A stretch of DNA of 43,709 nucleotides from a virus (lineage: Duplodnaviria > Caudoviricetes). The notes below the pieces were generated by a model. That model searched no databases and was not told where the DNA came from. It saw only the letters and a program-made list of their open reading frames with translations. Made by a program: the position numbers and the translations under genes. The stretch covers positions 1 to 43,709 of IMG/VR virus record IMGVR_UViG_3300010376_000062. The stretch is one strand, 5' to 3'. Below, one piece after another: positions 1 through 42,138 of this stretch (position 1 is the first letter of the stretch; each line of letters opens with the position of its first letter).

Positions 1-123
1 AGCCAGTCGTGGCTGTTCTTGGCGAGGACGACGACGTAGTCGTAGTGCTCGAAGTGCTGGAGGCCCATCTTCCCGTTCGTCGGGTCGAGCGACGAGGTGA
101 GGCCCGGCGCGGGCGCGTCGGTC
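1..123. repeat. Terminal direct repeat (identical to 43587-43709); circular assembly overlap
   Basis: The first 123 nt match the last 123 nt exactly, and an ORF reads through the junction in frame. Confidence 0.97.
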
Positions 124-572
124 GAGGCCTCGGCCTCCTGGCCGAGCGTGTAGAGCAGGTCCTCGAGCGCGACTGTGCCCGGGTGGGTGGTCGCGAGGAG
201 CGCGCTCAGCTCGTCGTGGGCGGCGGTCGCCATCCCGGCGACCGGGTCGAGCGCGAGCAGGAGCAGGTCGGCCTCCTCGTCGGTGACGTCGAGGATGACG
301 GTCGGCCACTCCGCCTGGTGGCCGCGCCGCTCGTGCCCGTCGATCAGCGTCAGCTTGCCGCCGTTCCGTTCCGAGTGGTAGGCGGTCAGGACGCCGGCGA
401 TCCCGACCGACTCCAGCAGCTCGCCGATCGCGGCCTGCTGCGCGTACGGGTGGGTGCGCCAGTTGGCGGTGTTGACGTGCAGCTCGTCGGAGGGGACGCG
501 CCGGAACTCGATGATCCGGTCGCGGATGCCCTCGGCGAGCGCCTCGCCGTTGTCGGCGCGCGGCCGCGGCAT
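1..572 (-). CDS. ParB/Srx-like N-terminal domain protein, 5' part (spans the origin and continues to 43460; 232 aa in total)
   Basis: Missing from the ORF track because it crosses the end. ATG at 572 overlaps the upstream stop (TGATG). Reads MPRPRADNG...ELHVNTANWRTHP...LLESVGIAGVL...LTLIDGHERR, i.e. the ParB-like NxRxH and IDGHxR motifs. Confidence 0.8.
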   Translation of the reverse strand, partial: MPRPRADNGEALAEGIRDRIIEFRRVPSDELHVNTANWRTHPYAQQAAIGELLESVGIAGVLTAYHSERNGGKLTLIDGHERRGHQAEWPTVILDVTDEEADLLLLALDPVAGMATAAHDELSALLATTHPGTVALEDLLYTLGQEAEASTDAPAPGLTSSLDPTNGKMGLQHFEHYDYVVVLAKNSHDW

Positions 573-1525
573 CAGGCCGCGTGCGTCGAGTCGAGGACGT
601 TCCGCACCTGCTCGTAGGCTGTCTCGCGGTCGGGGGCGGCGTCGATGATCGACGCCAGGCGGTCGACGGTCTCGTCGCGGCGCAGCCAGCCGCCGGTCCA
701 GTGGGTGACGCCCTCGCCGAGGCCGACGCTCTCGTCGAACGGCGGCGCCGGCGGCTCGAGGTGCCAGCCGGGGTGCGCGGCGACGAACTCGCGCACGGCG
801 GCGAGCGGGTTATTCCAGGCCCAGTCGCGCTCGGTGCGCGGGCCGTGGTGGCGGGCGGCGAGCTGCATCATGTGCCCGTCCTGGACGACGACGTAGCCGC
901 CGGGCTTGACGAGCGGCGTGTACGCCTCCAGCTCGGCGAGCACGTGCGCCTTCGAGTGGGCGCTGTCGAGGAGCAGCAGCACCGACTCGTCGAGGCCGAT
1001 CAGCTCGGTGACCAGCTTGACCGTTTCCGCCGCGACGGAGTCGCCCTTGACGATCGTCACGTAGTCGCTGAGCTCGTGGGCCATGATCTCGCGCGCGTGG
1101 TCCTGCTCGGGGCTGCGGGGCAGTTCGACGCCGATCACGTTGCCGTGGCCCATCGCGTGGCAGAGGGTCGCGTAGAAGATCAGCGAGCCGCCGTGCGCGA
1201 CGCCCGTCTCGAGGATCACGTCGGGCCTGAGCCGGTAGACCAGTTCCTGGGCGCGGAGCAGATCCTCGGGCAGCTGGATGACCGGGCGGCCGAGCCAGGA
1301 GAACGACCACTGGTACTTGACGTCCCAGGCGACCCTGAGCCAGGCGGTCGCGATCGCTTCGAAGGCGGCCGGGTCGTCGAACGCGTACGTGTGCTCGGTC
1401 TGCCAGCTCGCCTCGCCGGCGGCGCCCTGCCGGGTGACGGTGACGGTGCCGGCGGCCAGGTCGACGTCGAGCCGGCGAAGGTGCCCGAGCTCCGTCTCCG
1501 TCAGGCGATCCGAGTCAAGGTTCAC
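572..1525 (-). CDS. CmcI (cephalosporin hydroxylase)/rhamnosyl O-methyltransferase family SAM-dependent methyltransferase
   Basis: Family motifs SWLGRPVIQLPEDL, PDVILETGVAHGGSL, LLDSAH, GGYVVVQD, NNPLAAV. The GTG start has no SD, so it is uncertain. Confidence 0.88.
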   Translation of the reverse strand: MNLDSDRLTETELGHLRRLDVDLAAGTVTVTRQGAAGEASWQTEHTYAFDDPAAFEAIATAWLRVAWDVKYQWSFSWLGRPVIQLPEDLLRAQELVYRLRPDVILETGVAHGGSLIFYATLCHAMGHGNVIGVELPRSPEQDHAREIMAHELSDYVTIVKGDSVAAETVKLVTELIGLDESVLLLLDSAHSKAHVLAELEAYTPLVKPGGYVVVQDGHMMQLAARHHGPRTERDWAWNNPLAAVREFVAAHPGWHLEPPAPPFDESVGLGEGVTHWTGGWLRRDETVDRLASIIDAAPDRETAYEQVRNVLDSTHAA

Positions 1526-1631
1526 ACGAAGGAGAGTGCCGAAGCACTACGACGGAGCCCGAGCATGTGTCGTCCGAGGAGGCGGCGATGCCACTGGCCA
1601 AAGCGACAGGCGAACCCGACTCGGACGACAC
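1507..1631 (-). ncRNA. Candidate antisense sRNA / structured 5' leader of the leftward operon
   Basis: Starts just downstream of a leftward promoter. Has a 12-bp perfect closing stem (1567-1578/1620-1631) and a minus-strand AGTGC-UUCG-GCACT hairpin (1535-1548). Carries complements of early-gene RBS motifs. Confidence 0.55.
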
Positions 1632-1636
1632 GAGTG

Positions 1637-1666
1637 AGCATAGCGGGCGCCGGCGCGGGGCGTCTA
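1637..1666 (-). promoter_or_regulatory. Leftward sigma70-type promoter
   Basis: Minus strand TAGACG (1666-1661) -18 nt- TATGCT (1642-1637); near-identical hexamers to the rightward promoter. Confidence 0.6.
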
Positions 1667-1760
1667 TGCGGGCTTCGTTGTGTCCGTGCGGAACCCGTTG
1701 AGCACCCGTAAATCTTCCGTTATTCATGCTCAAAAAGGCGTGATTTCCAGGGCTTTTTGC

Positions 1761-1789
1761 TTGACGCCTTGAGCACCTATGGATATGCT
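1761..1789 (+). promoter_or_regulatory. Rightward (early) sigma70-type promoter
   Basis: TTGACG -17 nt- TATGCT in a locally AT-rich patch; predicted start near 1796. Confidence 0.75.
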
Positions 1790-1795
1790 TTGGCT

Positions 1796-2370
1796 ATGGC
1801 CAAAGCAACAGGAAACCCGCTGGAAACACCGGACGTATTGCGCGTGTTTCCTTTGCCGAGGCGGCGAATGGCGTACCAGCACCCACGCAGCGAAGACCGC
1901 ATGGCGGTCGGATTCGGTAGTGCCCGCCCGAACGTTGGGACGGCACCCGGGGAAGCTGTAACGGGCGGGAGCGCTGGCCGGATCGTCGGCCAGCCGCGCC
2001 GCTAGCTCGCAGAACCAGGCCCTTCGGGGAACGCGGCCTCCTGGACAGTCAGATCGAGCGGGACGACGACGTCGCCCGACCGATCGGCCAGTCGCCTGCG
2101 TGCGCGACCGGGATCGTCCCGGAACACGCGTGAGAGACGCCGCGAGGGTTCGCGGAACGGGAAGCGACAGACGGCCGATCGTGACCAGCCCCTTCGGGGG
2201 AGGGCGACGTCCCAGTTCGGCGGCCGGTGCCGCCGAGTCCCGTGACTGTGCTCGCAGCCCGTACGCGGGGAGGGCGAGCGGTAACCGATCCGAAAGGCCG
2301 TGAGAGGGCCTGGCGCCATGCGCGGTTCGACTCCGCCACGGCGCTTCGAGGGGCGCGACTCACGAACGCG
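1796..2370 (+). ncRNA. Candidate large structured RNA (early leader or stand-alone ncRNA)
   Basis: Nested helices, UUCG/UACG/GNRA loops and a T-loop hairpin (GCGG-TTCGACT-CCGC); no convincing ORF. Confidence 0.6.
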
Positions 2371-2406
2371 CGAGATCCGAGTCACACTCACACGAAGGAG
2401 CACGAG

Positions 2407-2673
2407 ATGCAGGAGCCGGACCGCAGCAAGGGGTACGTGAACCCGACGTACACGATCGACGAGCTGGTCGCCTGGGTGAAGGCGTACGCGCTCGAGCACT
2501 ACGAGGACGGCGGCTGGGACGTCGTCGTCGAGGCCTACGAGGACGCCGAGATCGCCGACGTGCTCGGCCAGGTGAACACGACGAAGGGGGCGCTCAAGAA
2601 GTTCGCGCCGCTGATCGACGTCTGGTCGGACCGGCAGGCCGACGCCCGCTACCACGCGTCGCAGGCGGGCTGA
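2407..2673 (+). CDS. Hypothetical protein
   Basis: AAGGAG SD then ATG 2407 (MQEPDRSKG...); phage-typical codon usage. Confidence 0.75.
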   Translation: MQEPDRSKGYVNPTYTIDELVAWVKAYALEHYEDGGWDVVVEAYEDAEIADVLGQVNTTKGALKKFAPLIDVWSDRQADARYHASQAG

Positions 2674-2678
2674 GCGAG

Positions 2679-2918
2679 ATGCTTCGCGAACTCGATCAGC
2701 GCACGAACGAGGGCGTGGTCGTCACGCTCGCCTGGGACGACGTCGACGACGTCGTCGTCCTGCACGTCACGAACCGGGAGGAGACGCTCACGGGCGCCGT
2801 CCCCGCCGAGAAGGCGCTCGACGCCTTCCATCACCCGTTCGTGTACCTGACGCCCGAGTCGGTCGACTGGACGGTGCCGCCCGAGGCGCCGCCGACGCCC
2901 GAGTCGCTGGCCGTCTAG
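2679..2918 (+). CDS. Conserved actinobacterial hypothetical protein (RELDxR...ALDAFHHPF type)
   Basis: Recognisable small-protein pattern; function unknown. Confidence 0.65.
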   Translation: MLRELDQRTNEGVVVTLAWDDVDDVVVLHVTNREETLTGAVPAEKALDAFHHPFVYLTPESVDWTVPPEAPPTPESLAV

Positions 2919-2920
2919 CG

Positions 2921-3002
2921 GACGTTGCGGCTCCCGCCCGTGAGGGCGAGGGGCCGGAGCACCCGCTCCGAGATCCGAGTCAACGCAGTTCACACGAAGG
3001 AG
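2921..3002 (+). repeat. Early intergenic hairpin/RBS cassette, copy 1
   Basis: GACGTT-stem(GTGA loop)-GGAGCACCCGCTCC-GA-GATCCGAGTCA...CACACGAAGGAG. Confidence 0.85.
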
Positions 3003-3008
3003 GCCCAC

Positions 3009-4172
3009 ATGGGCGCAGTTCCGAGGAAGCCGTCGCGCGCGCTGATTCGCGCGGCGGACGTCAAGCCCGAGCGGTTGCAGTTCCTGCTCGACGACCTGGT
3101 CGGGGATCGCTTCCCGAAGGGGTCGATCACGCTGATCGGCGGCCGGCCCGGCCAGGGCAAGTCGCTGGTCACGAACTGGCTGGCCGCCGAGGTCACGCAG
3201 CGCGGCGGCGCGGTCATCATGTCGAACCCGGAGGACCAGCTGGCGTCGATGAAGCTGCCGCGGCTGATGGCCGCGAAGGCGGACACGCGCCTCGTCCACC
3301 TGTGGCCGGGGAAGATGCGGCTGCCGCACGACGTCGAGCTGCTCGAGGAGCTCGTGCTGTTCCACGGCGTCGAGCTGATCACGATCGACCCGATCGCGAA
3401 GCACGTGGGCGGCTCAGACCCGAACACGGCGCTCGAGCCGCTGGCCGCGATGGCCGAGCGGACGGGGGTCGCGGTCGTCGGCGTGCACCACCTGAACAAG
3501 CGGCTGCCGAAGGACGCGCATCCGCAGGAGGCGTTCGGCGGGGCGTCGGGCGGCTGGCTCGGCACCGTGCGCTTCGCGCACGTGCTCGGCCCGACCGGGG
3601 CCGGCGAGGCCGAGACGCGGTTCATGGCGGTCGCGAAGGCGAACGCCGCCGACGATCAGATGCCCGCGGTCGAGTTCTACACGGACATGGTCGAGGTCGA
3701 CATGCCCGACGGCACCGTGGACGAGGCGCCGCGCCTCGTGTTCGTGAACGACTCGGCGCCGGTGCCCGCGGCCGAGGTCGTGCAGTTCAAGGGCGGCGAG
3801 GGGTACAAGGCCGAGAACCCGGAGAAGAAGGCGGTCGCGTCCGAGTTCCTGGCGCTGCTGCTCTTGCAGGCCGCCAAGGAGGGCCGCGAGGTCCCCGCGA
3901 AGGAGGTCTTCGACAAGGCGGCCGAGCACGGCGTCTCGAAGATGACCGTCCGCCGCGCGGCCGACGACCTGGACGTGAAGAAGCGCCGCGTCGGGTTCGG
4001 GCCGGGGAGCTACCTCGTCTGGGAGCTGCCGGAGGATCACCCGCTGCTCCGCACGATCGGGCCGAAGACCGAGAAGGCCAAGCCGGTCCGCGGCGAGGTG
4101 CTCGACGGCCAGATGGACGTCGACGAGGTGCTGCGGCAGATCCTGGAGGAGGCGGACGAAGATGCAGCCTGA
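3009..4172 (+). CDS. RecA-fold AAA ATPase (AAA_25/RepA-like helicase)
   Basis: Walker A GRPGQGKS, Walker B LITIDP, VVGVHHLNK motif; SD AAGGAGG before ATG 3009. Confidence 0.82.
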   Translation: MGAVPRKPSRALIRAADVKPERLQFLLDDLVGDRFPKGSITLIGGRPGQGKSLVTNWLAAEVTQRGGAVIMSNPEDQLASMKLPRLMAAKADTRLVHLWPGKMRLPHDVELLEELVLFHGVELITIDPIAKHVGGSDPNTALEPLAAMAERTGVAVVGVHHLNKRLPKDAHPQEAFGGASGGWLGTVRFAHVLGPTGAGEAETRFMAVAKANAADDQMPAVEFYTDMVEVDMPDGTVDEAPRLVFVNDSAPVPAAEVVQFKGGEGYKAENPEKKAVASEFLALLLLQAAKEGREVPAKEVFDKAAEHGVSKMTVRRAADDLDVKKRRVGFGPGSYLVWELPEDHPLLRTIGPKTEKAKPVRGEVLDGQMDVDEVLRQILEEADEDAA

Positions 4173-4650
4173 CGAGATCGTCGTCCCGGACGTGTTCGGT
4201 GAGATCACGGGCTTCCGGGCCTGGAAGATCCTGGGCACGCGGAAGCTGCCGCTGCTCGGGTCGGCCACGCACAAGGGCACCGTCTGGCACCCGGACCGCT
4301 GGACGCACGCGACCTGCGGCGGCGAGACGGTCTGCCACCGCTCGCCCGACCGGCGGGTGCCGGGCGAGAGCTGCGCGTGTGGGATGTACGCCGCCCGCGA
4401 TCGCCGCCACCTGTCGGGCATGTCGTACGTGCGCGAGCACGACGAGCACCCGGTGCTGATCGGCGAGGTCGGGCTCGCCGGGAAGGTGATCGAGGGTCCG
4501 CAGGGCTGGAAGGCCGAGCGCGCCCGCATCAAGCGGCTGTACGTGCCGTTCCACCACTACCGCTGGATCGAGCCGCTGGCGGCGCTCTACCAGGTGCCCG
4601 TGCTGCCCGACAACGTCCGCAGCGCAACGTCGAGCCTCGAAGGGAGGTGA
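4162..4650 (+). CDS. Phage hypothetical protein with Cys/His cluster
   Basis: GFRAW...ATC...CACGMYA...GKVIEGPQGWKAERARI; overlaps the upstream stop. Confidence 0.7.
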   Translation: MQPDEIVVPDVFGEITGFRAWKILGTRKLPLLGSATHKGTVWHPDRWTHATCGGETVCHRSPDRRVPGESCACGMYAARDRRHLSGMSYVREHDEHPVLIGEVGLAGKVIEGPQGWKAERARIKRLYVPFHHYRWIEPLAALYQVPVLPDNVRSATSSLEGR

Positions 4651-4655
4651 ACGAG

Positions 4656-4784
4656 ATGGAGATTGGCGAGCCGCAGAAGACGATCATCGTCGAGCCGCTC
4701 GAGGATCCGTTCGAGACGCCCGCACCGGCGCCCGAGCGCACGCCCGAGCCGGTGCCGGTCGAGCCGGAGAAGGTGCCCGCGTAA
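4656..4784 (+). CDS. Small Pro/Glu-rich protein
   Basis: GGAGG SD, MEIGEPQKTIIVEP... Confidence 0.65.
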   Translation: MEIGEPQKTIIVEPLEDPFETPAPAPERTPEPVPVEPEKVPA

Positions 4785-4803
4785 GCGGGCACCTCGCATA
4801 CCG

Positions 4804-4848
4804 CATACCTGCTCACCTTGCGTCGCCGCGCCAGGTTGAGCACCTATG
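4804..4848 (+). promoter_or_regulatory. 45-bp bipartite site, copy 1
   Basis: CATA-CCT-GCTCA N21 TGAGC-ACC-TATG. Confidence 0.75.
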
Positions 4849-4858
4849 AGAGAGGAGC

Positions 4859-5428
4859 GTGATGGCGGAAGAGCGGAGACGCCCGATCTCGTTCGGCGAC
4901 ATGCACACGCCGGGCGGGTACAAGAACGGCGAGGTCGCGTCGGCGCTGCAGAAGGCGATCCGGCGCGGGAACGAACGCGAGGCCCTCTTCTGGGCGTCGG
5001 AGCTCGACCTGGCCGGGTACGGCGGCTACGTCTGGAAGCGGCTGCGGATCATCGCCTCCGAGGACGTCGGGCTGGCCGACACGGAGGCGGTGCTCGCCGT
5101 GCACGCGCTCTGGCAGTCGTGGCTGGAGCACAAGAAGGCGACGAAGGAGAGCGAGCCGCTGCATCTCCTGCACGCCGTCTGCCTGCTCGCCAGAGCGAAG
5201 AAGTCGGGAGTCGTCGTGCACGCCTGGATGGCGTTCTACGAGGGCGACCGGCAGGCGATGGGAATGGAGATCCCCGACCACGCGCTCGACATGCACACCG
5301 CGCGCGGCCGCAGGATGGGGAGAGGGAAGCAGCACTTCCTGGACGACGCCGGGCAGCTCGCGAACGAGACGCTCGAGGATCCGTACTTCGCCGAGGGCGC
5401 CTCGGCGTGGATCAAGTCGAAGGGTTGA
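4859..5428 (+). CDS. Stand-alone MgsA/RarA C-terminal-like helical domain protein
   Basis: SALQKAIRRG...ALFWA...VWKRLRIIASEDVGLAD matches the post-AAA region of RarA; no Walker motifs present. Confidence 0.75.
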   Translation: MMAEERRRPISFGDMHTPGGYKNGEVASALQKAIRRGNEREALFWASELDLAGYGGYVWKRLRIIASEDVGLADTEAVLAVHALWQSWLEHKKATKESEPLHLLHAVCLLARAKKSGVVVHAWMAFYEGDRQAMGMEIPDHALDMHTARGRRMGRGKQHFLDDAGQLANETLEDPYFAEGASAWIKSKG

Positions 5429-5490
5429 CGTTGCCGGTCCCGCCCGCAAGGGCGAGGGCCGGGAGCAGCAGCCGCTGTTCCAGAAAGGAG
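5426..5490 (+). repeat. Early intergenic hairpin cassette, copy 2
   Basis: TGACGTT-stem(GCAA loop)-GGAGCAGC-AGCC-GCTGTTCC-AGAAAGGAG; lacks GATCCGAGTCA. Confidence 0.8.
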
Positions 5491-5495
5491 GACGC

Positions 5496-5732
5496 ATGAA
5501 GACCCTGATGATCGTCAGCCTGAGCGTCGCGCTCTCCGTCGCGATCAGCGTGCCCGCCACGCTCGCGCTCGGTCGCGCGCCGGCGCGCGCCGTCACGACG
5601 GCCGTCAAGACGCCGTCGTACGTGCCGCAGGTGATGGACGAGTACGAGAACTGGTGCGACCCGAACGCACGCGTCGCCCCGTTCCCTGGCGGCCCGCTGA
5701 TCTGCCCGGCGAGCCTGCACTTCACCCGCTGA
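5496..5732 (+). CDS. Small secreted/membrane protein
   Basis: N-terminal basic residue plus hydrophobic stretch; two Cys; strong SD. Confidence 0.65.
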   Translation: MKTLMIVSLSVALSVAISVPATLALGRAPARAVTTAVKTPSYVPQVMDEYENWCDPNARVAPFPGGPLICPASLHFTR

Positions 5733-5805
5733 TGTTGCCGGTCCGCCCGCAGGGGTAGGGCCGGGAGCACCCGCTCCGAGATCCGAGTCAACCGAACGAA
5801 GGAGG
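5730..5805 (+). repeat. Early intergenic hairpin/RBS cassette, copy 3
   Basis: TGATGTT-stem-GGAGCACCCGCTCC-GA-GATCCGAGTCA-ACCGA-ACGAAGGAGG. Confidence 0.85.
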
Positions 5806-5810
5806 ACGAG

Positions 5811-6662
5811 ATGGCTGAGAAGCCGTCGAGCCAGCCGCTGCCGGCGAACGGGCGCAAGCTCACGATCGGCTTCGGGCTGGTGAACGTGGCAGTGACGATG
5901 AAGTCGCTGACTGACAACAACCGGCCGGTGCCGGGGAAGGGGCTGTGCGCCGAGCACGGCGACTCGCTCGCGAGCGTCAGCCTGTGCAGCGCCGGGACCG
6001 AGCACGAGCACGTGGTCGCCTACGCGGAGAAGCTCACGGGCTACCCGCATCCGGACGAGCCGGGCCGCCTGGTCGTCGTCGACCCGGCGACCGTCAAGAG
6101 CCTCGCCGAGGCGACCGACGGGCGGGGCGCGATCGTGCGCGTCGTCGACGCCGCCGAGATCGATTCGGCGTACACGGAGAAGGCGTTCCTCGTCTACCCG
6201 CAGGCCGGGCAGGAGCAGGCGTTCGACCTGCTCGCCGCGCTGCTGCGGGCCGAGGGCAAGGCGGCGCTCGTCGAGGTCGTGATGAGCAAGCAGACCGAGA
6301 CGCTCGCCGTCCGCTGGCACGCCGAGCTGGACGTGCTCGTCGCGGAGACGATCCGCTACGAGCAGAAGATCCGGCACGCCGACGCCGAGCTGATCCGCCG
6401 CGCCGCGGACACGCGGCCCGCCGTCGACGAGCGGATGCTCGCGGCCGCGAAGCCGCTGCTCGACTCGCTCGCCGGCGTCTTCGACGCGAGCGAGGCCCAG
6501 GACACCTGGACGCCGCTGATGCAGGACGCGATCCGGGCGGCCGACAAGGGCGAGACGTTCGAGGCCCCGGCCGCACCGGCCGAGACGCCGGTGATCGACC
6601 TGATGGCCGCGATCCAGGCGTCGGTCGAGGCGAGCAAGCAGGCCGAGGAGGTGGCGGCATGA
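5811..6662 (+). CDS. ku: Ku DNA end-binding protein (NHEJ)
   Basis: LTIGFGLVNVAV N-terminal Ku signature; C-terminal VIDLMAAIQASV. Confidence 0.82.
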   Translation: MAEKPSSQPLPANGRKLTIGFGLVNVAVTMKSLTDNNRPVPGKGLCAEHGDSLASVSLCSAGTEHEHVVAYAEKLTGYPHPDEPGRLVVVDPATVKSLAEATDGRGAIVRVVDAAEIDSAYTEKAFLVYPQAGQEQAFDLLAALLRAEGKAALVEVVMSKQTETLAVRWHAELDVLVAETIRYEQKIRHADAELIRRAADTRPAVDERMLAAAKPLLDSLAGVFDASEAQDTWTPLMQDAIRAADKGETFEAPAAPAETPVIDLMAAIQASVEASKQAEEVAA

Positions 6663-7582
6663 CCGCCGCCTTCCGGCCGATGCTCGCGAAGGCGGGCAAG
6701 CTGCCGGTCGGCGACGACTGGCTATACGAAGTGAAGTGGGACGGCGTCCGCTGCGTCGCGACGATCGACGGCGGCGCGGTGACGATGCAGAGCCGGTCGT
6801 CGCTGACCGACTGGACGCAGCAGTTCCCGGGGATCGCGGCGGCGCTCGCGCGGCTGCCGTTCGATGCCGTGCTCGACGGCGAGATCGTGACGCCGGACGA
6901 GAACGGGTACACGTTCGGGCTCGCCGCGGGCGCCGGGTCGCTCGTCCCGGCGCGGCTGATCGTGTTCGACGTGCTCTCGTGCTTCGGCACGAGCACGAAG
7001 GCGATGCCGCTCTCCGACCGGCGCAAGGTGCTGCAGGTGATCGCGCCGGCGCTCGCTGCCGAAGGGGCGGGCGTGCTCGAGGTGTCGCCGTCGTTCAGCG
7101 ACGGCGAGACGCTGCTCGCCTGGGTCGCCGCCCGTGGGCTGGAAGGGATCGTCGCGAAGCGGAAGTCGTCCCGGTACATCGAGGGGCGGCGCGGCGACGA
7201 GTGGCTGAAGGTGAAGGTCCGGCGGGAGCAGGAGTTCGTCGTCTGCGGCTGGACGCCCGGCAAGAACGGGCGGACGGGGCGGATCGGCGGGCTCGTGCTC
7301 GGGCAGTACGACGAGGACGGAGATCTCGTCTACTGCGGCCGGGCCGGGATGGCCGAGGCGTACGACGGCGCGATGGAGCGGGCGCTGACGCAGCTGGCCG
7401 CTCCGTGCCCGTTCGCAGCGTTCCCGATCCAGGAGCGCGAGGCGACCTGGGTCAAGCCGGAGGTCGTCGTCCAGGTCGCGTACCAGCGCTGGACGGACGA
7501 AGGCCGGTTGCAGCACCCGGTGATGAAGGCGATCCGGGAGGACAAGCACCCGCGCGACGTGACCGTCGCCGGGCGCGAGTGA
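6659..7582 (+). CDS. ATP-dependent DNA ligase (LigD/LigC-type ligase + OB domain only)
   Basis: YEVKWDGVR (adenylated Lys), LDGEIV, VFDVL, EGIVAKR, WLKVK, GRLQHP; ATGA overlap with ku. Confidence 0.92.
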   Translation: MTAAFRPMLAKAGKLPVGDDWLYEVKWDGVRCVATIDGGAVTMQSRSSLTDWTQQFPGIAAALARLPFDAVLDGEIVTPDENGYTFGLAAGAGSLVPARLIVFDVLSCFGTSTKAMPLSDRRKVLQVIAPALAAEGAGVLEVSPSFSDGETLLAWVAARGLEGIVAKRKSSRYIEGRRGDEWLKVKVRREQEFVVCGWTPGKNGRTGRIGGLVLGQYDEDGDLVYCGRAGMAEAYDGAMERALTQLAAPCPFAAFPIQEREATWVKPEVVVQVAYQRWTDEGRLQHPVMKAIREDKHPRDVTVAGRE

Positions 7583-8052
7583 GCTACCGGCCGCCGTCGT
7601 GGCGACGGCTCGACCGCGAAGACGAGGCGCTCGAGCTCGGCGAGGACGCCGCGCGGATCAGCGCCGCGAACGACAGCAGGTTCCCCTGGCTGGCCGACTT
7701 CGAGTGCCGCGTCTGCGGCGAGATCGGCTGCCTGACCGACCACACGAAGGAGCGAACGATGACCGACATGCTGAACGACCTCGCCCCGACGAACGGCGAG
7801 AAGCCGAAGCTGGTGCCCTGCATCGAGTGCGGCGCCGACGCGCCGCGGTTCGGCAAGTACGCGGGCCGCTGCCCCGAGCACCGCGTCAAGGCCGAGCGGC
7901 CGAAGCGCCGCAAGGTGAAGGCGGCGCCCGGCCTGGTGCTCGTGCCGCAGCTGGAGTCGCCGCTCGGGAAGGCGGCGCTCCGCTACGAGCTGGCGAAGGG
8001 CGAGTACGAGGCCGCGAAGGCGGCGCTGCTGGAGCTGCTCGAGATCGACTGA
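7579..8052 (+). CDS. Cys-rich (Zn-binding) hypothetical protein; alternative internal start at 7759
   Basis: GTGA overlap at 7579; CxxC pairs; internal CACACGAAGGAG SD before ATG 7759. Confidence 0.6.
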   Translation: MSYRPPSWRRLDREDEALELGEDAARISAANDSRFPWLADFECRVCGEIGCLTDHTKERTMTDMLNDLAPTNGEKPKLVPCIECGADAPRFGKYAGRCPEHRVKAERPKRRKVKAAPGLVLVPQLESPLGKAALRYELAKGEYEAAKAALLELLEID

Positions 8053-8122
8053 CGTTCCCGCTCTCGCCCGTGACGGGCGGGGGCGGGAGCACCAGCCGGT
8101 GCTCCGATCCGAGTCAAGGAGG
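8050..8122 (+). repeat. Early intergenic hairpin/RBS cassette, copy 4
   Basis: TGACGTTCCCGC-stem-GCGGGAGCACC-AGCC-GGTGCTCC-GATCCGAGTCAAGGAGG. Confidence 0.85.
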
Positions 8123-8127
8123 ACGAG

Positions 8128-8310
8128 ATGCAGGTGAAGTTCGTGTTCGGGAAGGAGACGAAGGGCGCGATCCAGTTCAAGGAGGTGCCCGAGGGTGAGT
8201 TCGGCGTCGAGCGCGTCGGCTCGCTCTACGTGAAGAAGCACGCGCTGCCCGAGCTCGGCGGCGACGCGATCGCGAAGGGCCTCGTCGTGACGATCGAGGT
8301 CGCACCGTGA
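8128..8310 (+). CDS. Small phage hypothetical protein
   Basis: KETKGAIQFKE...VGSLYVKK; strong SD. Confidence 0.7.
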   Translation: MQVKFVFGKETKGAIQFKEVPEGEFGVERVGSLYVKKHALPELGGDAIAKGLVVTIEVAP

Positions 8311-8648
8311 TGCACGAACGCCGCGTCTGGGGCGAGCCGGTCGAGGTGACGCTCGACGAGTTCGCCGACAAGGTGACGCGGTTCACGTGGACGAACTGCA
8401 CAGCCTGGCGGGTCGGCGAGTACGTGTTCGTCAACGACGCGACCGGCGGCGACGGCGGCCAGGAGTACGCGGTGCTTAAGCAGGACCGCGCCGGCGACTG
8501 GTGGCAGGTCGAGTCGTGGACGTGCTCGTGGATGGACGTCGAGGATGTGCGGAAGCACTTCGGGCGGCTGGCCGAGCGGGCGCCGATGCATTGGCGTCGC
8601 GTCGAGCCGAGGTTCGAGAAGCACACGTCCTGCGCGTACTGCGCCTGA
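8307..8648 (+). CDS. Hypothetical protein
   Basis: Start overlaps the upstream stop; Trp-rich; typical codon usage. Confidence 0.65.
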   Translation: MMHERRVWGEPVEVTLDEFADKVTRFTWTNCTAWRVGEYVFVNDATGGDGGQEYAVLKQDRAGDWWQVESWTCSWMDVEDVRKHFGRLAERAPMHWRRVEPRFEKHTSCAYCA

Positions 8649-8667
8649 CGGTGACGAGAGGAGAGTG

Positions 8668-8817
8668 ATGGCCAAGACGAACCGTGAGAAGGCGGCCGAG
8701 CACGCCGAGAAGGCCGAGGGTCTGCTCAAGGGGTCGCAGGTGCTGAAGCTCGCGCATCTGGCGGACGCGCACGCGACGCTCGCTCTGTACTACCGCGACC
8801 TGCCCGATAGCGGATGA
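8668..8817 (+). CDS. Small helical hypothetical protein
   Basis: AGGAG SD, MAKTNREKAAEHAEKA...AHATLAL. Confidence 0.6.
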   Translation: MAKTNREKAAEHAEKAEGLLKGSQVLKLAHLADAHATLALYYRDLPDSG

Positions 8818-8888
8818 CGTTCCCGCTCCTGCCAGTAACGTGGCGGGGGCGGGAGCACCAGCCGGTGTTCCGATCCGAGTCAAGGAGG
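8815..8888 (+). repeat. Early intergenic hairpin/RBS cassette, copy 5
   Basis: TGACGTTCCCGC-stem-GCGGGAGCACC-AGCC-GGTGTTCC-GATCCGAGTCAAGGAGG. Confidence 0.85.
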
Positions 8889-8892
8889 AACG

Positions 8893-10206
8893 ATGAGTGT
8901 GTACGTGGAGGTGCCGATCGGCGACCTGAAGGTCGCCGAGGACAACGTCCGCCAGGACGTCGGCGACGTGAGCGAGCTTGCGGCGTCGGTGAAGGCGGGC
9001 GGCGTGTTGCAGCCGCTGCTGGTGAACGAGGCCGACATGGTCGTCGTCGCCGGCGCCCGCCGGTTGGCGGCGGCGAAGCAGGCGGGGCTGAAGGTCGTGC
9101 CGGTGATGAAGCGGGCGTTCAGCGACCAGGAGCGGCTCGAGACGATGATCGTCGAGAACCTGCAGCGGGAGGACCTGACGCCGCTCGAGGAGGCGAACGC
9201 GCTCAAGCGGCTGGTCGACCTCGGGCTGACGCAGCGGCAGGTCGCCGCCCGGGTCGGCCGCTCGCAGGCGCTCGTCGCGAAGCGGCTCGCGCTGCTGACG
9301 CTCCCGGCGACCGTGCAGCAGGCGGTTGATTCCGGCGGAATCACGCTGCCCGACGCCGTCGAGCTGGCGAAGCTGAAGGACACGCCTGACGTCGTCGAGA
9401 AGCTGGCGGTCAAGGGCAACTCGTACGGGCCGTCGATCAGCTCGAAGGTCGAGGCCGAGCTCGCGAAGCGCGAGAAGGCGAAGAAGCGGCAGGCGGCGCA
9501 CGACGCGCTCGTCAAGAAGGGCGAGAAGGTGCTCGACGCCCCGACCGACGAGTACGGCTACCGCGTGCAGCTGCCCGACGGCGTGCTCGAGGTGCGGAAG
9601 GAGGCGTACACCGCCGCGCAGGTCGAGATGGACCCGAAGGCGCACGCCAAGCTGGAGTGCCACGCGGTCGTCGTCGACCCGCGCGAGCCGCACGGGCCGA
9701 TCGAGGTGTGCACGAACCCGAAGAGCCACCCGTCGCGGGCCGAGAAGATGAAGGCCGCCCGCGAGCGGGAGGCGGCGAAGGCGAAGCGGGCGCAGGAGGC
9801 GTTCGACCGGATGACCGAGCGGCGCCGTGACTACGTCCAGGTGCTGATCAAGGGGCGCGCCGACAAGGACGCGCTGCTCGAGCTGGCGTACCACGCGCTG
9901 TCGTACGGCGAGCGGATGTACTACGGCGCCCAGGAGGACGAGGACGAGATGGCCGTCGAGCTGCTCAGGCTGGAGCCGCCGGCGGACGCGACGCCCGAGG
10001 ATGTCGACTGGAAGCTCGTGCTCGACCAGGAGGCGGCGAAGAGCGTGACGGCGCGGAACCGCGTCATGTTCGCGATCGCCGCGGCGACGTTCGAGATCGC
10101 GCTCAACCGCGACGGCAACTGGGCCGACGAGAAGCCGTGGTTCGAGTGGCTCGTCGGGCGCGGCTACGAGCTGAGCGCGCAGGAGAAGGAGGCGGTCGGC
10201 AAGTGA
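8893..10206 (+). CDS. parB: ParB/RepB/Spo0J family protein (CTPase + HTH)
   Basis: GVLQPLLV, VAGARRLAAA (GxRR), IVENLQREDLTPLEEA, HTH LTQRQVAARVGRSQALV. Confidence 0.9.
   Translation: MSVYVEVPIGDLKVAEDNVRQDVGDVSELAASVKAGGVLQPLLVNEADMVVVAGARRLAAAKQAGLKVVPVMKRAFSDQERLETMIVENLQREDLTPLEEANALKRLVDLGLTQRQVAARVGRSQALVAKRLALLTLPATVQQAVDSGGITLPDAVELAKLKDTPDVVEKLAVKGNSYGPSISSKVEAELAKREKAKKRQAAHDALVKKGEKVLDAPTDEYGYRVQLPDGVLEVRKEAYTAAQVEMDPKAHAKLECHAVVVDPREPHGPIEVCTNPKSHPSRAEKMKAAREREAAKAKRAQEAFDRMTERRRDYVQVLIKGRADKDALLELAYHALSYGERMYYGAQEDEDEMAVELLRLEPPADATPEDVDWKLVLDQEAAKSVTARNRVMFAIAAATFEIALNRDGNWADEKPWFEWLVGRGYELSAQEKEAVGK
9327..9343. promoter_or_regulatory. 17-bp palindrome copy 1 (inside parB)
   Basis: TGATTCC-GGC-GGAATCA. 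Confidence 0.65.
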
Positions 10207-10598
10207 TCGCCGTCTACGTGCCGGCCGGAGAGCCGGACTTCGCGTGGCGTGTCGGGGCGGGTCCCCGGCACGCCCGCTCGATCAAGCCCGGGTCCGGGAT
10301 CGTCGGCCAGTCGGTGCTGGAAGGGCAGATGATCGAGCTGTACTTCGAGGGCAACCTGTACGGCGCCGTGAACCTCGACCGCTTCGCGCAGCGGGTGCGC
10401 CAGGCGGCCGGGCGGATGGAGCAGTCGTACCCGACGATCGCGCGGATGCACGTCAAGCCCGAGGACGTGATCCAGGTCGGCTGGTTCGACGCCGACCAGG
10501 GCGTCGTCGTGGTGATGCCGGGCGGCGACGCGGCACGGATGCTCGCCAGTTGGCTCGACGTCGACGTGAACGAATTGCACAAGGAGTTGATCGCATGA
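10203..10598 (+). CDS. Hypothetical protein
   Basis: GTGA overlap with the parB stop; LYFEGNLYG motif. Confidence 0.65.
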   Translation: MIAVYVPAGEPDFAWRVGAGPRHARSIKPGSGIVGQSVLEGQMIELYFEGNLYGAVNLDRFAQRVRQAAGRMEQSYPTIARMHVKPEDVIQVGWFDADQGVVVVMPGGDAARMLASWLDVDVNELHKELIA

Positions 10599-10819
10599 CG
10601 GCGAGAGAACACGCAGAGAAGGCGAGCGAGCTGCTGGAAGGGATCGAGCGGATGGACGAACGGCTCGCGAAGCTGGACGAGATGGAGCAGCTGCAGATGC
10701 ACGCGACCGGCGGCGGCAGGCGGGCGAACGCGGATCGCGAGTACTCGTGCAGGCTGGCGACCGCGCACGCGCTGACGGCGCAGGCGCTGGTCGCGACGAC
10801 GGACGAGGTGGCGCTGTGA
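10595..10819 (+). CDS. Small helical hypothetical protein
   Basis: AAGGAG SD, ATGA overlap; MTAREHAEKA...AHALTAQAL. Confidence 0.65.
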   Translation: MTAREHAEKASELLEGIERMDERLAKLDEMEQLQMHATGGGRRANADREYSCRLATAHALTAQALVATTDEVAL

Positions 10820-11070
10820 CGCTGATCGAGCATCCGCGTCCGTGCCCCGACTGTGGCGTGCTGCCGGGCTGGACGCATGAGCGGGGCTGCGACGTCGAGC
10901 GCTGCTCGGTCTGCGGGCTGCAGGCGATCGGCTGCGGCCACGACGCCGAGCACGACCCGGCGGCGGCGTTCTGGACCGGGTACTGGCCGGGCGATGAGAC
11001 GGTGCGTCTGCTGCGGTTCGCCGACCAGAACGAGCTCGCCCGCTATCTGGCGGCGGCGCGTCGATCGTGA
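10816..11070 (+). CDS. Cys/His-rich Zn-binding protein
   Basis: CPDCGV...HERGCDVERCSVCG...CGH. Confidence 0.7.
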   Translation: MTLIEHPRPCPDCGVLPGWTHERGCDVERCSVCGLQAIGCGHDAEHDPAAAFWTGYWPGDETVRLLRFADQNELARYLAAARRS

Positions 11071-11294
11071 GCGGCGAGCCGCGCTACCGGCGTCCGTCGC
11101 CGGCGTGGTGCACGGAGACGGCGATCCGGCTGCTGCAGATCGGGTCGCGTGACTTCGACACGCTGGTCGACGGCGAGCGGCTGCTGCCCGGCGGCGACGC
11201 CGAGCTGCTCGTCCGGGCGGCGGCCGCGCTCGACGCGTACGGTCAGCGCATAGAGGCTCATCGTCGCGCGCCGCGTGACGTTGATCGCCTATGA
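11067..11294 (+). CDS. Hypothetical protein
   Basis: GTGA overlap; last ORF before the terminator. Confidence 0.5.
   Translation: MSGEPRYRRPSPAWCTETAIRLLQIGSRDFDTLVDGERLLPGGDAELLVRAAAALDAYGQRIEAHRRAPRDVDRL
11249..11293 (+). promoter_or_regulatory. 45-bp bipartite site, copy 2
   Basis: CATA-GAG-GCTCA N21 TGATC-GCC-TATG. Confidence 0.7.
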
Positions 11295-11346
11295 GAGCCG
11301 TAGACTGATTCGGGCTGCGGTGCGTCGCCCAGTCGCCGTGCACGAT

Positions 11347-11377
11347 GGCCCCGCCTTCGGGCGGGGCCGCTTTTTTT
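11347..11377 (+). terminator. Intrinsic terminator ending the early operon
   Basis: GGCCCCGCC-TTCG-GGCGGGGCC followed by GC-TTTTTTT. Confidence 0.9.
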
Positions 11378-11412
11378 GTGTCGCGGGCCGGGCGGGCAGG
11401 CAGAATCGGGCC

Positions 11413-11553
11413 ATGCCGTACGTGGTGAGGAAGCGCGGCAGCAAGTGGGCGATCGTGAACGCGAACACGGGCAGGGTCGCCGGGACGTCGTCGACGCGGG
11501 CGAACGCCGAGGCGTCGGCGCGGATCAGAAACGCCGCTCACAAGAAGCCGTAG
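11413..11553 (+). CDS. Small basic protein (leaderless candidate)
   Basis: MPYVVRKRGSKWAIVNANTGRV...; CAGAAT lies 6 nt before the ATG. Confidence 0.65.
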   Translation: MPYVVRKRGSKWAIVNANTGRVAGTSSTRANAEASARIRNAAHKKP

Positions 11554-11567
11554 AGGGGGCGCGTATT

Positions 11568-11999
11568 TTGGGCGCTCTGCAGGCGTGTCGTGTCCCGGGC
11601 TGTCCAAACGCCGCGCTCAGGGAGGCGACCTGGTGTAAGGCGCATACGCCGGGTCGCAGGGATGGCGTGCTCAGGAAGGTGCGGTTGCAGGTGCTGCGTC
11701 GTGACGGGTGGCGTTGTGTGCGTTGTGGGCAGTTGGCTACAGAGGTCGATCATCTGAAGCCTGCTGTGTTGGGCGGGCGGCTGGTGGTGAGTGCTGATGA
11801 GCTGGTTGCTGTGTGTGCTCGCTGCAATGTCAGAGGACAGTCGCAGTCGATCGAGTCGTCGCGTGCGAGTCGTGTGAGCCGCGTGATGAAAGGCCCGGCG
11901 CCCCCTGCGAGGAGTTCGCTCACCCACCTTCGCCTTTCCGGGAAAAAAACTCCGAAAAACGCGGTTTCGATGACACTCCGGGAATCCAGGGAGCGCTAG
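11568..11999 (+). CDS. HNH endonuclease (terminase-associated)
   Basis: VLRRDGWRCVRCG...EVDH...GG...LVAVCARCN, N-terminal CxxPGC..C..H; start (TTG) uncertain. Confidence 0.8.
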   Translation: MGALQACRVPGCPNAALREATWCKAHTPGRRDGVLRKVRLQVLRRDGWRCVRCGQLATEVDHLKPAVLGGRLVVSADELVAVCARCNVRGQSQSIESSRASRVSRVMKGPAPPARSSLTHLRLSGKKTPKNAVSMTLRESRER

Positions 12000-12003
12000 G
12001 CGG

Positions 12004-12486
12004 GTGCGCTGCGTCGCCACGACCGCCAAGGGCGCGCCCTGCAGGCAGTCGGCGATGGCCGGGACCGACCTGTGCGTGTCGCACCTGGGCCGGACCGGGC
12101 GGAAGACGAAGCTGACGCTGGAGCTGACCGAGCAGCTCGTCTCGATGCTGCGGGCCGGGGTGCCGGCGGCGACCGCCTGTGCACGGCTGAGCGTCTCGAA
12201 GTCGGCGTACCACGAGTGGCTGGCGGCGGACGACCCGCTCCACGCACGCTTCGCCGAACGCGTCCGGGAAGCGCAAGCGACCGGCGAGGCGCTGCTCGTG
12301 ACGCGGATCGCGGCGGCGTCGACCGAGAACTGGCAGGCGGCGGCCTGGCTGCTCGAGCGGACGGTGCCGGAGCGCTACGCGCGCCTGTCGCAGCGGGCGC
12401 TGGCGCCGGAGCAGGAGAAGCCCGACGACCCGTTCGCGGAGTTCGTGACCGATGAGCTCGCAGAGCGCCGCGGTCGACCGGCTTGA
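12004..12486 (+). CDS. terS: Terminase small subunit
   Basis: RCxAxTxxGxPC N-terminus, GRKTKLT-HTH, WQAAAWLLER; immediately before terL. Confidence 0.75.
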   Translation: MRCVATTAKGAPCRQSAMAGTDLCVSHLGRTGRKTKLTLELTEQLVSMLRAGVPAATACARLSVSKSAYHEWLAADDPLHARFAERVREAQATGEALLVTRIAAASTENWQAAAWLLERTVPERYARLSQRALAPEQEKPDDPFAEFVTDELAERRGRPA

Positions 12487-13894
12487 GAAGTTCGCGGGCT
12501 TCTGCTCGCTGCTCCGCCTGGAGAACGGTGATCCGTTCGAGCTTGAGGGTTTCCAGTGGCGGCTGCTGTTCGACTACTTCGCCGGCGTCGTCGAGACACT
12601 GGTCCTGCTCAGCAAGAAGAACGGCAAGACGACCCTGCTGAGCGCCCTGGCGCTGCACCACCTGATGACGACGACCGACGCCGAGTGCGTGATCGGCGCG
12701 GCCTCGCGCGACCAGGCCGGGATCCTGTTCGGGCAGGCGCAGGGGTTCGTCCGCCGCTCGCCCGGGCTGGCCGGGCACGTCGACCCGAAGCCGGGCTACC
12801 GGGAGATCCGCTCGAAGGCGAACGCCGGGAAGATCCGGGTGCTGGCCGCCGACGTCGACACGGCCGACGGGGTGATCCCGACGCTGGCGCTCGTCGACGA
12901 GCTGCACCGCCACCGCGACGCGGGCCTGTACGGCGTCTTCCGCGACGGGCTCGGCCCGCGCGACGGGCAGATGATCACGATCTCGACCGCGGGCGACAAC
13001 GAGGGGTCGGCGCTCGGGGTGCTGCGCGCGACCGCCCGCCACCTGCCGCACGTCGTCACGCAGCTCGACGGCCGCTACCTGTACGCGCGGACGGCCGACG
13101 ACTCGTTCGCGATGCACGAGTGGTCGCTGAAGGACGACGACGACGTCGACGACATGGAGCTCGTCAAGCTCGTGAACCCGCTCTCGGCGCAGACGGTGAA
13201 GAAGCTGCGGCGGCGGCACGACAGCCCGTCGATGTTGCCCTGGCAGTGGCTGCGCTTCGCCTGCGGCGTCTGGGCGGCCGGCGAGGCCTGGTGGATGATC
13301 CCGGACGTCTGGCGCGACAACGAGTCGCCCGAGGAGCTGAAGCCCGGCGACCGGATCGCGCTCGGCTTCGACGGGTCACGCTACGGCGACGCGACCGCCC
13401 TGGTCGGCTGCCGCCTCGAGGACGGCCTGGTCGAGCTGCTGAACGTCTGGGAGTGCCCGACGACGCCGCCGCCGGCGAACTGGGAGGTCCCAGCCGGCGA
13501 GGTCGACAAGGCGGTCGCGACGGCGATGGACCGCTTCAAGGTCGTCCGCGGCTACTTCGACCCGCCGCTCTGGCAGTCGGAGATCGACGGCTGGGCGATG
13601 GAGTTCGGCGAGACGGCCGTGATGCGCTTCTGGACGGCGCGGGCGCGGATGATGGCGGCGGTCGAGCGCTTCCGCACCGACAACGTCGCAGGGGCGGTGC
13701 CGCACGTCCCGAACGTCGTGTTGGACAAGCACGTGCTCAACGCGCAAGCTAAGGAGGTCCGTGGGGGGTACTGGCTGACCCGCAGAAGCGAACGCGAGAA
13801 GATCGACGCCGCCGTCGCGACGGTGCTCGCCTACGAGGCGCGCTGCGACGCGATCCAGAACGACGAGCGGCCGAGCAGGTACGCCTTCCTGTGA
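12452..13894 (+). CDS. terL: Terminase large subunit
   Basis: KKNGKT Walker A, LVDELH Walker B, ISTAG motif III, LGFDGS...DATAL nuclease, KIDAAVA. Confidence 0.95.
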   Translation: MSSQSAAVDRLEKFAGFCSLLRLENGDPFELEGFQWRLLFDYFAGVVETLVLLSKKNGKTTLLSALALHHLMTTTDAECVIGAASRDQAGILFGQAQGFVRRSPGLAGHVDPKPGYREIRSKANAGKIRVLAADVDTADGVIPTLALVDELHRHRDAGLYGVFRDGLGPRDGQMITISTAGDNEGSALGVLRATARHLPHVVTQLDGRYLYARTADDSFAMHEWSLKDDDDVDDMELVKLVNPLSAQTVKKLRRRHDSPSMLPWQWLRFACGVWAAGEAWWMIPDVWRDNESPEELKPGDRIALGFDGSRYGDATALVGCRLEDGLVELLNVWECPTTPPPANWEVPAGEVDKAVATAMDRFKVVRGYFDPPLWQSEIDGWAMEFGETAVMRFWTARARMMAAVERFRTDNVAGAVPHVPNVVLDKHVLNAQAKEVRGGYWLTRRSEREKIDAAVATVLAYEARCDAIQNDERPSRYAFL

Positions 13895-23984: not shown

Positions 23985-24029
23985 CATACATGCTCACCCC
24001 GCCGACCCGCGCGAGGCTGAGCGCCTATG
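23985..24029 (+). promoter_or_regulatory. 45-bp bipartite site, copy 3
   Basis: CATA-CAT-GCTCA N21 TGAGC-GCC-TATG; supplies the ATG at 24027. Confidence 0.75.
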
Positions 24030-33048: not shown

Positions 33049-33465
33049 GTGCACGTGGCACTCGATCTGTTGACGATCGCCGACTTCGCCGCCGAGACGA
33101 AGGTGTCGCGGCGAACCGTCGAGCGCTGGATCTCGGAGGGCAAGCTCGCGGTGGTGCTGCTCAACGGCACCCGGACGGCCGGCTCGGTCCGGATCAAGCG
33201 CAGCGAGGCCGAGCGCTTCAAGCGCCGCCGCGCCGTCCGGTTCGCGAAGAAGGCCGCCATCGACGCCGCCGTCGCCGTGCTGCTGTTCCTGGCCGTGACG
33301 GCCGTGCTCGCGGCCGCGAGCTGGGACCCGGCCGAGCGGGTGATGACCAGGCTCCACGTCGGCTGGTGGCCCGGGATCGACCACCGGGACCATGACCCGC
33401 ACGGGATCGAGCCGAGGGGCGGCGACCACGACCTCGACAACGCCTACACGCTGGTACGGGCGTGA
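33049..33465 (+). CDS. Excisionase-like HTH protein with C-terminal hydrophobic segment
   Basis: LLTIADFA...VSRRTVERWISEGKL (HTH_17 pattern). Confidence 0.65.
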   Translation: MHVALDLLTIADFAAETKVSRRTVERWISEGKLAVVLLNGTRTAGSVRIKRSEAERFKRRRAVRFAKKAAIDAAVAVLLFLAVTAVLAAASWDPAERVMTRLHVGWWPGIDHRDHDPHGIEPRGGDHDLDNAYTLVRA

Positions 33466-33665
33466 GCGCCGTGGCCGAGCGCTACGTCGACGCCGCCGAG
33501 CTGGCCGGGCTGATGGGCGTCTCCCGGAACACGATCAAGCGCTGGACGGCCGAGGGGATGCCGTCGCAGACCTGGGGGCTGCGGGTCCGCCGCTACCGGC
33601 TGTCGGAGGCGACGTCCTGGGCCGCGAAACGAGGTAGAGTCGGTGAAAGCCGGGATCGCACGTGA
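33462..33665 (+). CDS. Excisionase/AlpA-like HTH protein
   Basis: YVDAAELAGLMGVSRNTIKRW...GMP...RRY. Confidence 0.75.
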   Translation: MSAVAERYVDAAELAGLMGVSRNTIKRWTAEGMPSQTWGLRVRRYRLSEATSWAAKRGRVGESRDRT

Positions 33666-33700
33666 CCGCGACCCGGGAACCGACCAAAGGAGTAGCCCTC

Positions 33701-42120: not shown

Positions 42121-42138
42121 GGGGCAAGCGTAGAGGCG

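Follow-up and report, generated by a model that had tools for sequence, protein, structure and literature searches.

A predicted antisense RNA with a loop complementary to a tag at early-gene Shine-Dalgarno sites of a high-GC phage

Why should a phage keep, within the start of a leftward gene, one more copy of a sequence that otherwise lies directly at the Shine-Dalgarno (SD) sites of its early genes? The initial annotation of this locus had answered with a single antisense RNA, encoded opposite positions 1507-1534 and complementary to the ribosome-binding regions of at least six early genes. The window, by which we mean the whole 43,709-nucleotide stretch of DNA analysed, corresponds to a virus record of 43.7 kb that is complete, bears terminal repeats and has 71% G+C; we infer a high-GC actinobacterial host, and among homologues of the leftward ParB-like protein one with 50% identity carries the label Gaiellaceae. 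A rightward early region encodes an AAA_25 helicase-like protein, an MgsA C-terminal domain, Ku, an ATP-dependent ligase and ParB, while structural genes, a tyrosine integrase and a leftward operon headed by a CmcI-like methyltransferase form other modules. For comparison we used three phages with available DNA and a helicase more than 60% identical, namely L109 (genome G001, 76%), L130 (a 4.7-kb fragment, 70%) and L110 (genome G002, 63%), which together with the window make a group of four.

The only promoter called in positions 1-12500 is the rightward early promoter (TTGACG-17-TATGCT, + strand, 1761-1789). It is followed at 1790-2400 by a 600-nt structured non-coding early leader, which ends in a T-loop-like GGTTCGA hairpin just before the first tag; L109 and L130 retain a similar hairpin, and the leader drew no Rfam or tRNA call.

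Tagged early-gene starts and a displaced copy

The + strand sequence reported for 1507-1534 was confirmed, as were all six of its reported matches near early genes. The 11-mer GATCCGAGTCA occurs exactly six times in the window, on the + strand only; with up to one mismatch there are eight matches against 1.18 expected, a count that none of 100 shuffles reaches, and the two-part tag pattern occurs three times against 0.00 expected. Five copies, starting at 2374, 2972, 5780, 8106 and 8872, terminate in an SD with the start codon 5-7 nt downstream. All on the + strand, tag 1 (2374-2400) precedes an 88-aa gene without a family (2407-2673), tag 2 (2972-3002) the AAA_25 helicase-like gene (3009-4172), tag 3 (5780-5804) the Ku gene (5811-6662) with the ATP-dependent ligase gene after it, tag 4 (8106-8121) a 60-aa gene without a family (8128-8310) and tag 5 (8872-8887) the ParB gene (8893-10206). 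Six tagged genes had been proposed, but only five carry a full tag, the match at 7741-7752 (+ strand, before an ATG at 7759) being the SD half alone.

Spacer length between the tag halves ranges from zero to more than 20 nt, and four of the five tags form the 3' end of a larger unit made up of a GC-rich hairpin, a short linker and the tag. The hairpins of these units, all on the + strand, lie at 2923-2962, 5734-5770, 8054-8092 and 8819-8858 (tags 2 to 5); a further one, at 5429-5468, belongs to an untagged member of the repeat family (5429-5490, + strand), in which the hairpin and an SD without the tag core precede a 78-aa gene (5496-5732). Their base is conserved and their top variable, and they are also found in the relatives. 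Most tags have a conserved hairpin of ~17 bp 10-25 nt upstream. The unit hairpins before early genes could be processing sites or terminators, and the early RNase III sites of T7 are a precedent for processing hairpins in such a position. Several tags are also preceded by a CUCC stretch that could pair with the SD in cis, and the repeats of the window are visibly homogenised (48 nt, 98%). A promoter role for the tags was rejected because the promoter scan calls none there.

The copy at 1507 has neither a unit hairpin nor a usable start and is the sole copy enclosed by a helix. As had been said of it, it makes a poor + strand ribosome-binding site, with a GTG 1 nt past its SD. A rightward gene beginning from it was likewise discarded, since only 0-1 nt separates the SD from the start codon in three of three cases.

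The predicted leftward RNA and its predicted pairing

The leftward promoter that had been proposed can be read as a promoter-like site at 1666-1637, but it matches only 8/12 consensus positions, is sub-threshold and goes uncalled by the promoter scan. From this predicted sigma-A-like promoter (minus strand, -35 TAGACG at 1666-1661, -10 TATGCT at 1642-1637, spacing 18) RNA would start near 1631; the corresponding site reads TTGGCC-17-TACACT in L109 and, in L130, TTGACC-16-TACACT. On the minus strand the predicted RNA has a hairpin 1 (1567-1631) with a 12-bp basal stem, conserved in L109 and L130 and replaced by a different 5' hairpin in L110, and a hairpin 2 (1482-1565; z -4.3) closed by a 15-bp helix between 1565-1551 and 1496-1482. 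The UUCG hairpin noticed earlier beside the copy is present, and hairpin 2 encloses both the UUCG arm and the anti-tag. The anti-tag (minus strand, 1505-1536) joins an extended anti-SD to the complement of the tag core; at its apex a 7-nt loop, UUGACUC, is predicted, the sequence of which complements the core GAGUCAA. This loop starts with a YUNR U-turn motif, typical of antisense recognition loops.

A 171-nt minus-strand stretch folds at z -4.1, a value equalled by none of 200 shuffles. By a simple count that ignores bulged helices (it gives 12 for L109 and 10 for L130, though RNAfold gives 16 bp), the helix enclosing the 1507 copy has 16 bp against 6-9 bp around the five tags, and an enclosing helix of at least 16 bp is found at 0.2% of 1500 random sites. 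There is no U-rich end 3' of hairpin 2 in the window. An Rfam scan of window positions 1-12000 at E<=10 returned sub-threshold chance matches and no c4 match, six related loci gave nothing at gathering score, and a tRNA/tmRNA search found none. A leaderless upstream ORF through the RNA, considered in the window and L109, was dropped because L130 has no start codon there.

The anti-tag overlaps the CmcI-like O-methyltransferase gene (minus strand, 572-1525; Pfam PF04989, E 5e-54). The GTG inside it, which lacks an SD, is in frame with CmcI in all three CmcI-bearing phages (window, L109 and L130); in the window and L130 no other in-frame start precedes the domain, and L109 has later GTGs as well. 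The anti-tag is the 5' end of the CmcI frame in three of the four phages, which supplies another reason for its conservation and counts against the RNA model.

The predicted duplexes have energies of -43.1, -47.9, -36.0, -30.2 and -30.2 kcal/mol for tags 1 to 5. It had been expected that the tagged starts would rank top among possible targets, and the five full tags take ranks 1, 2, 3, 5 and 6 of 100 predicted starts in the window and ranks 1-5 of 80 in G001, but the half-site at 7741-7752 is absent from the top predicted partners of the anti-tag RNA. An untagged late-gene start at 17108 ranks fourth in the window, which again speaks against the RNA model. Genome-wide, duplex ranks are 1, 2, 3, 4 and 6 for the window tags and 1, 2, 3, 5 and 7 for those of G001, and the three tags of G002 are its top three non-self sites among 14,954 windows. 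When tags and loops were compared across phages, 12/12 window-type tags preferred window-type loops (-30 to -48 versus -18 to -28 kcal/mol) and all three G002 tags preferred the G002 loop, so that own-group preference is 15/15 in prediction; among the window-type tags, some are predicted to pair better with a loop other than the cognate one. After both folds are paid for, predicted net binding is -2.3 to -18.8 in the window, 0 to -11.1 in G001 and -1.1 to -6.4 in G002, and for several pairs such binding of folded partners would be weak, a further point against the RNA model. In all four phages the SD itself lies within the stretch that the anti-tag covers, and since pairing is predicted there, translational repression would be the expected outcome. 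L109 and L130 have a small hairpin inserted between the halves of the helicase tag; such hairpin-forming spacers, together with G-U pairs at duplex edges, fit RNA pairing.

Relatives and the start-associated sequences of cluster K

Do the relatives keep the extra copy? All three retain the tags and one hairpin-borne anti-copy (z -3.3 to -4.8), in each case behind a promoter-like site. The extra copy is not tied to a start in any of the four phages, lying on the same DNA strand as the tags in three and inverted in G002, and the anti-tag strand folds better than its complement in three of four, the exception being L130, whose hairpin folds better on the other strand (-40.4 versus -37.8). L109 and L130 share the tag core of the window with altered stems. 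In G002 tags are found before helicase, Ku and ParB, and all three differ from the window core by two substitutions and an insertion; the G002 anti-copy, which lies inverted with respect to the tags, in a helix of 17 bp with a U-rich 3' tail and no CmcI gene, matches its own tags, for one of the three through a change that extends the pairing. Co-variation of tag and anti-tag, suggested beforehand as a check, is thus found in these matched G002 changes and in a 2-nt indel between the window and L109 that is common to anti-tag and helicase tag. A three-sequence consensus fold, with two-sided changes in 9 of 48 pairs, was set aside as covariation proof because it is misaligned at the UUCG insertion of the window. 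DNA-level homogenising of repeats could mimic the co-variation of tag and anti-tag, but the inversion of the G002 copy, the variability of the spacer and the lack of a unit hairpin at the extra copy argue that it is not the whole story.

A fourth locus (L129, 37% identical) has no shared tag. Pattern scans for relatives yielded one related contig among 104 viral loci, only G002 again among 116 loci and none among 10 genome loci; single-protein scans with CmcI and terminase yielded none, a Ku alignment recovered only the two known relatives, and no close isolated phage was found. Many assembled relatives are represented by their proteins, with helicases 50-81% identical. Among 79 loci with a leftward ParB-like gene a pre-SD motif is present in six distant phages, in none of which did reading the matches reveal a hairpin anti-copy, and four of these motifs look like repeated promoters. 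In the distant phages L158, L208, L209 and L222 a full sigma-70-like promoter and SD cassette stands before each early gene.

The closest analogue of the window system is the start-associated sequence (SAS) of cluster K mycobacteriophages, which has the same design. In the sections of PMC3203893 that deal with these repeats their function is called unknown, and one copy in the opposite orientation, unconnected with any start, is reported for each of four K1 phages; the corresponding sections of PMC11373665 still call the role unknown. These accounts identify no RNA partner and allow for either an RNA or a protein as binder. Like SAS, the window tags are asymmetric SD-containing repeats in one orientation, a few nt before the starts of non-structural genes, and their conservation goes beyond rRNA pairing. 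They differ in sequence, the 13-bp SAS consensus GGGATAGGAGCCC being unrelated to the window tag, and in number, with five copies against 11-19 SAS. The window tag consists of two parts separated by a spacer of variable length and stands behind an RNA hairpin, whereas the ESAS is a promoter/inverted repeat; where an ESAS would have a 17-bp DNA inverted repeat and an upstream promoter, the window has GC-rich hairpins and no promoter call. SAS-type repeats also occur in cluster EF Microbacterium phages according to the SAS portion of PMC7302621; in Microbacterium phage AnnaSerena we counted 10 SAS, none of them accompanied by an inverted copy.

The 39.6 kb of Adephagia that we examined hold 16 sense SAS and one inverted copy, located in the gap of genes 92/93, where it forms the loop of a long hairpin (z -5.7) on the transcribed strand, behind another hairpin. 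For this gap the expression data covered in PMC11373665 report the beginning of late transcription in the interval separating gene 92 from gene 93 and list no lysogen expression; the same part of that source lists Adephagia gp39 with an Hfq-like fold, a counterpart of which was not found in the window phage. Anaya, Validus and Biglebops, examined at their right ends, share the Adephagia arrangement. Omnicron, AlleyCat and Rando14 have their inverted SAS in another stem, of 15-16 bp, lying ~1.1 kb from the left end, with a compensatory change between AlleyCat and Omnicron, and Fionnbharth has it in a third stem, of ~24 bp, before the primase gene and not in a late leader, which does not favour the RNA model. 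In total an inverted SAS lies in a hairpin loop on the transcribed strand in 8/13 cluster K phages, with three unrelated stems and sites, a tally in which AlleyCat, Rando14, Adephagia and Anaya were chosen as likely positives and the other nine include four with the copy. Hairpin-borne anti-SAS are absent from TM4, ZoeJ, ShedlockHolmes and Nibb, all of which have SAS, and degenerate in Bryler, the single inverted copy of ZoeJ serving a leftward gene. These cases and AnnaSerena count against the RNA model; an anti-copy occurs often, yet SAS can be present without one. With a 31-nt query, 159 records of Mycobacterium phages were matched, a figure that includes duplicates and one or more chance matches. 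The SAS before Adephagia gene 47 (L235, 16160-16200) is embedded in an inverted repeat that is conserved, with matching sites in TM4, Bryler and Nibb, and whose minus strand folds with G-U pairs; this is possibly a second anti-SAS source or an RBS-sequestering fold.

Competing explanations, related systems and genome setting

Conservation, co-variation and ranking speak for one antisense RNA acting on a shared early RBS tag, with five targets in place of the six first proposed. Judging from these sequence comparisons, we think it rather probable that the copy at 1507-1534 is the pairing module of a predicted antisense RNA that co-represses the five tagged early genes, likely for lytic shut-off. 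A host sigma-A-type promoter would give a leftward RNA from about 1631, which would fold into two hairpins, the second exposing the loop UUGACUC; this loop would seed on GAGUCAA, and pairing would extend across the SD with the variable spacer looped out, blocking 30S loading on the messages for the helicase-like protein, Ku, ParB and the two proteins without a family. With the RNA accumulating as genome copies increase, early protein synthesis would stop.

The annotation had offered lysogeny or an early-to-late switch as the occasion, and of these lysogeny is the weaker timing. The same RNA and pairing could serve it if a constitutive prophage RNA silenced leaky and superinfecting early transcripts, the tag then defining an immunity group. 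That job fits the leftward promoter, divergent from the early promoter in the usual immunity position, the tyrosine integrases encoded by the window and G001, and the predicted cognate/non-cognate specificity, which resembles immunity groups; C4 and CI are precedents in the relevant parts of PMC12197685 and PMC4825925, C4 setting P1 versus P7 immunity. The integrases and the divergent promoter keep lysogeny open, but we consider it unlikely as the main job. G002, complete by CheckV (100%), keeps the system without a PF00589 (integrase) or PF07508 (serine recombinase) match, plasmid-type lysogeny being possible; paired putative DNA operators flank or occupy the early promoter and point to a protein repressor; and the Adephagia gap has no listed lysogen expression in the part of PMC11373665 noted above. 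Lytic shut-off is favoured by G002, by these operators and by late transcription at two of the three cluster K sites.

Other accounts do without antisense repression. Tags that are double-stranded DNA protein sites or translation enhancers, with the 1507 copy an additional site or leftover and the hairpin a leader of the leftward operon, would explain why the extra copy is a direct repeat of the tags in three of four phages, and this account agrees with the recombination-type homogenising, with the several SAS phages that lack an anti-copy and with the repeated promoters before early genes of distant phages. It is nevertheless improbable, as the changing spacer suits a DNA site badly, the extra copy alone is helix-enclosed and has no unit hairpin or usable start, the G002 copy is inverted together with its hairpin, and three unrelated cluster K hairpins present the same anti-SAS loop. 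Control might also run in reverse or mutually, the tagged mRNAs pairing over the SD-less CmcI GTG and blocking it, or inducing a cleavage after which the leftward modification operon would have a leaderless message. The position of that GTG and the missing U-rich end after the window hairpin would suit this scheme, but G002 keeps the hairpin without CmcI and with a U-rich 3' tail, and the control of one gene needs no five SD-fused tags, so we give it little credence as the sole explanation; control between tagged mRNAs and the CmcI-like gene may run both ways, and may act alongside the shut-off that we prefer. It is equally doubtful that the RNA pairs in order to activate or mature messages, by opening a local fold or by guiding a nuclease or phage protein in concert with the unit hairpins. 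The conserved hairpin ahead of most tags and the CUCC stretches would be accommodated, but an anti-tag that covers the SD in all four phages blocks and does not free it, and no RNA-binding partner was found, a search for a phage RNA chaperone leading to the tagged 60-aa protein, which belongs to no named family and for which the model is of low confidence (pLDDT 54).

The P1 C4 and P4 CI RNAs had been named as analogues, which is apt for the way the window RNA would work but not for family membership. In the c4 RNA of P1/P7 (RF01695) loops pair with two-part RBS elements and block translation, and the window folds and duplexes are predicted to do likewise, displaying in a loop the complement of a two-part RBS element. 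However, c4 controls one antirepressor operon next to its gene, whereas the window targets would be five genes on the opposite strand, 0.9-7.4 kb away; no icd/ant or antirepressor family was found among the scanned window ORFs (55 Pfam, 32 PHROGs), and the Rfam covariance model does not place the RNA in RF01695. C4 is a cloverleaf processed by RNase P, and a cloverleaf is not seen in the window RNA. The c4 passages of PMC12197685 let sequence set the specificity between relatives, and c4 and c4-a1b1 target motifs are listed in the motif section of PMC2864571. The CI RNA of satellite phage P4 and Gifsy-1 IsrK are leader-derived RNAs that pair with repeated phage sequences and thereby control replication genes, as set out in the part of PMC4825925 devoted to them; P4 CI acts on flanking seqA/seqC in its own transcript and causes termination, whereas the window targets are dispersed, on another transcript and SD-fused. 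None of the top 14 duplex sites in the window lies on the RNA's own strand. Multi-target bacterial sRNAs such as GcvB, RsaE and RNAIII use anti-SD or C/U-rich loops and a shared seed against many RBS targets, but they are host-encoded with short imperfect seeds, whereas the window phage has a dedicated tag of 16-31 nt that co-varies with the RNA. PMC4351075 deals, in its repeat section, with a different repeat, and our searches of the open-access literature turned up neither an anti-SAS RNA nor a phage RNA whose targets carry dedicated tags at dispersed sites.

RBS address tags with one hairpin RNA that shuts the set off may form a general phage layer, arisen several times and accounting for SAS function; we hold this wider claim tentatively. 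If true, it would do with RNA what a repressor-operator regulon does, and would supply a mechanism, so far missing, by which early protein synthesis is ended. The phage antisense RNAs of the papers cited control one neighbouring operon, whereas the window RNA would span dispersed genes. The SAS repeats, described in 2011 and in 2024 still called unexplained, would become testable in cultured phages on M. smegmatis, and tag/RNA pairs without predicted cross-reaction would offer natural orthogonal translation-control parts for high-GC bacteria.

Several further features of these genomes were observed. Four inverted pairs of the form CATA-n3-GCTCA / TGA-n-C-n3-TATG with a fixed 21-nt gap lie at 4804-4848, 11249-11293, 23985-24029 and 40176-40220, and a half-site at 1770-1781 is an arm inside the spacer of the early promoter; the pairs also occur in G001 and L130, and in G002 with a 22-nt gap and a shifted consensus. 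They look from their sequence like a dispersed operator or stoperator set, for which ParB (a weak KorB match) and an HTH_3 protein are candidate binders. A 75-aa HTH_3 (Xre) protein is encoded at 38187-38414 (E 1.5e-12) and has no tblastn match in G001 or G002.

The Ku and ATP-dependent ligase genes (5811-7582) form an end-joining pair kept in G001 and G002. A sugar/DNA-modification cluster extends over 39171-43709 and 1-1525, with an epimerase, a DegT aminotransferase, methyltransferases, a ParB-like protein and a 258-aa protein whose G002 homologue has a weak match to a TET-associated glycosyltransferase; the set of ParB-like, 258-aa and MgsA C-terminal proteins is found again in many phages that are only distantly related. 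Two tandem excisionase-like HTH genes precede the integrase at 33049-34786, all rightward and after the lysis genes, and a protein with an Rpf-like transglycosylase domain (PF06737) is encoded at 36373-36852. In G002, low-complexity repeats fill the region between the RNA and the early promoter (L110, 4860-5640) and have at their end a poly-A-rich motif that is also found in L109, in L130 and at position 11941 of the window; the repeat region or its motif may be a genome end or packaging site.
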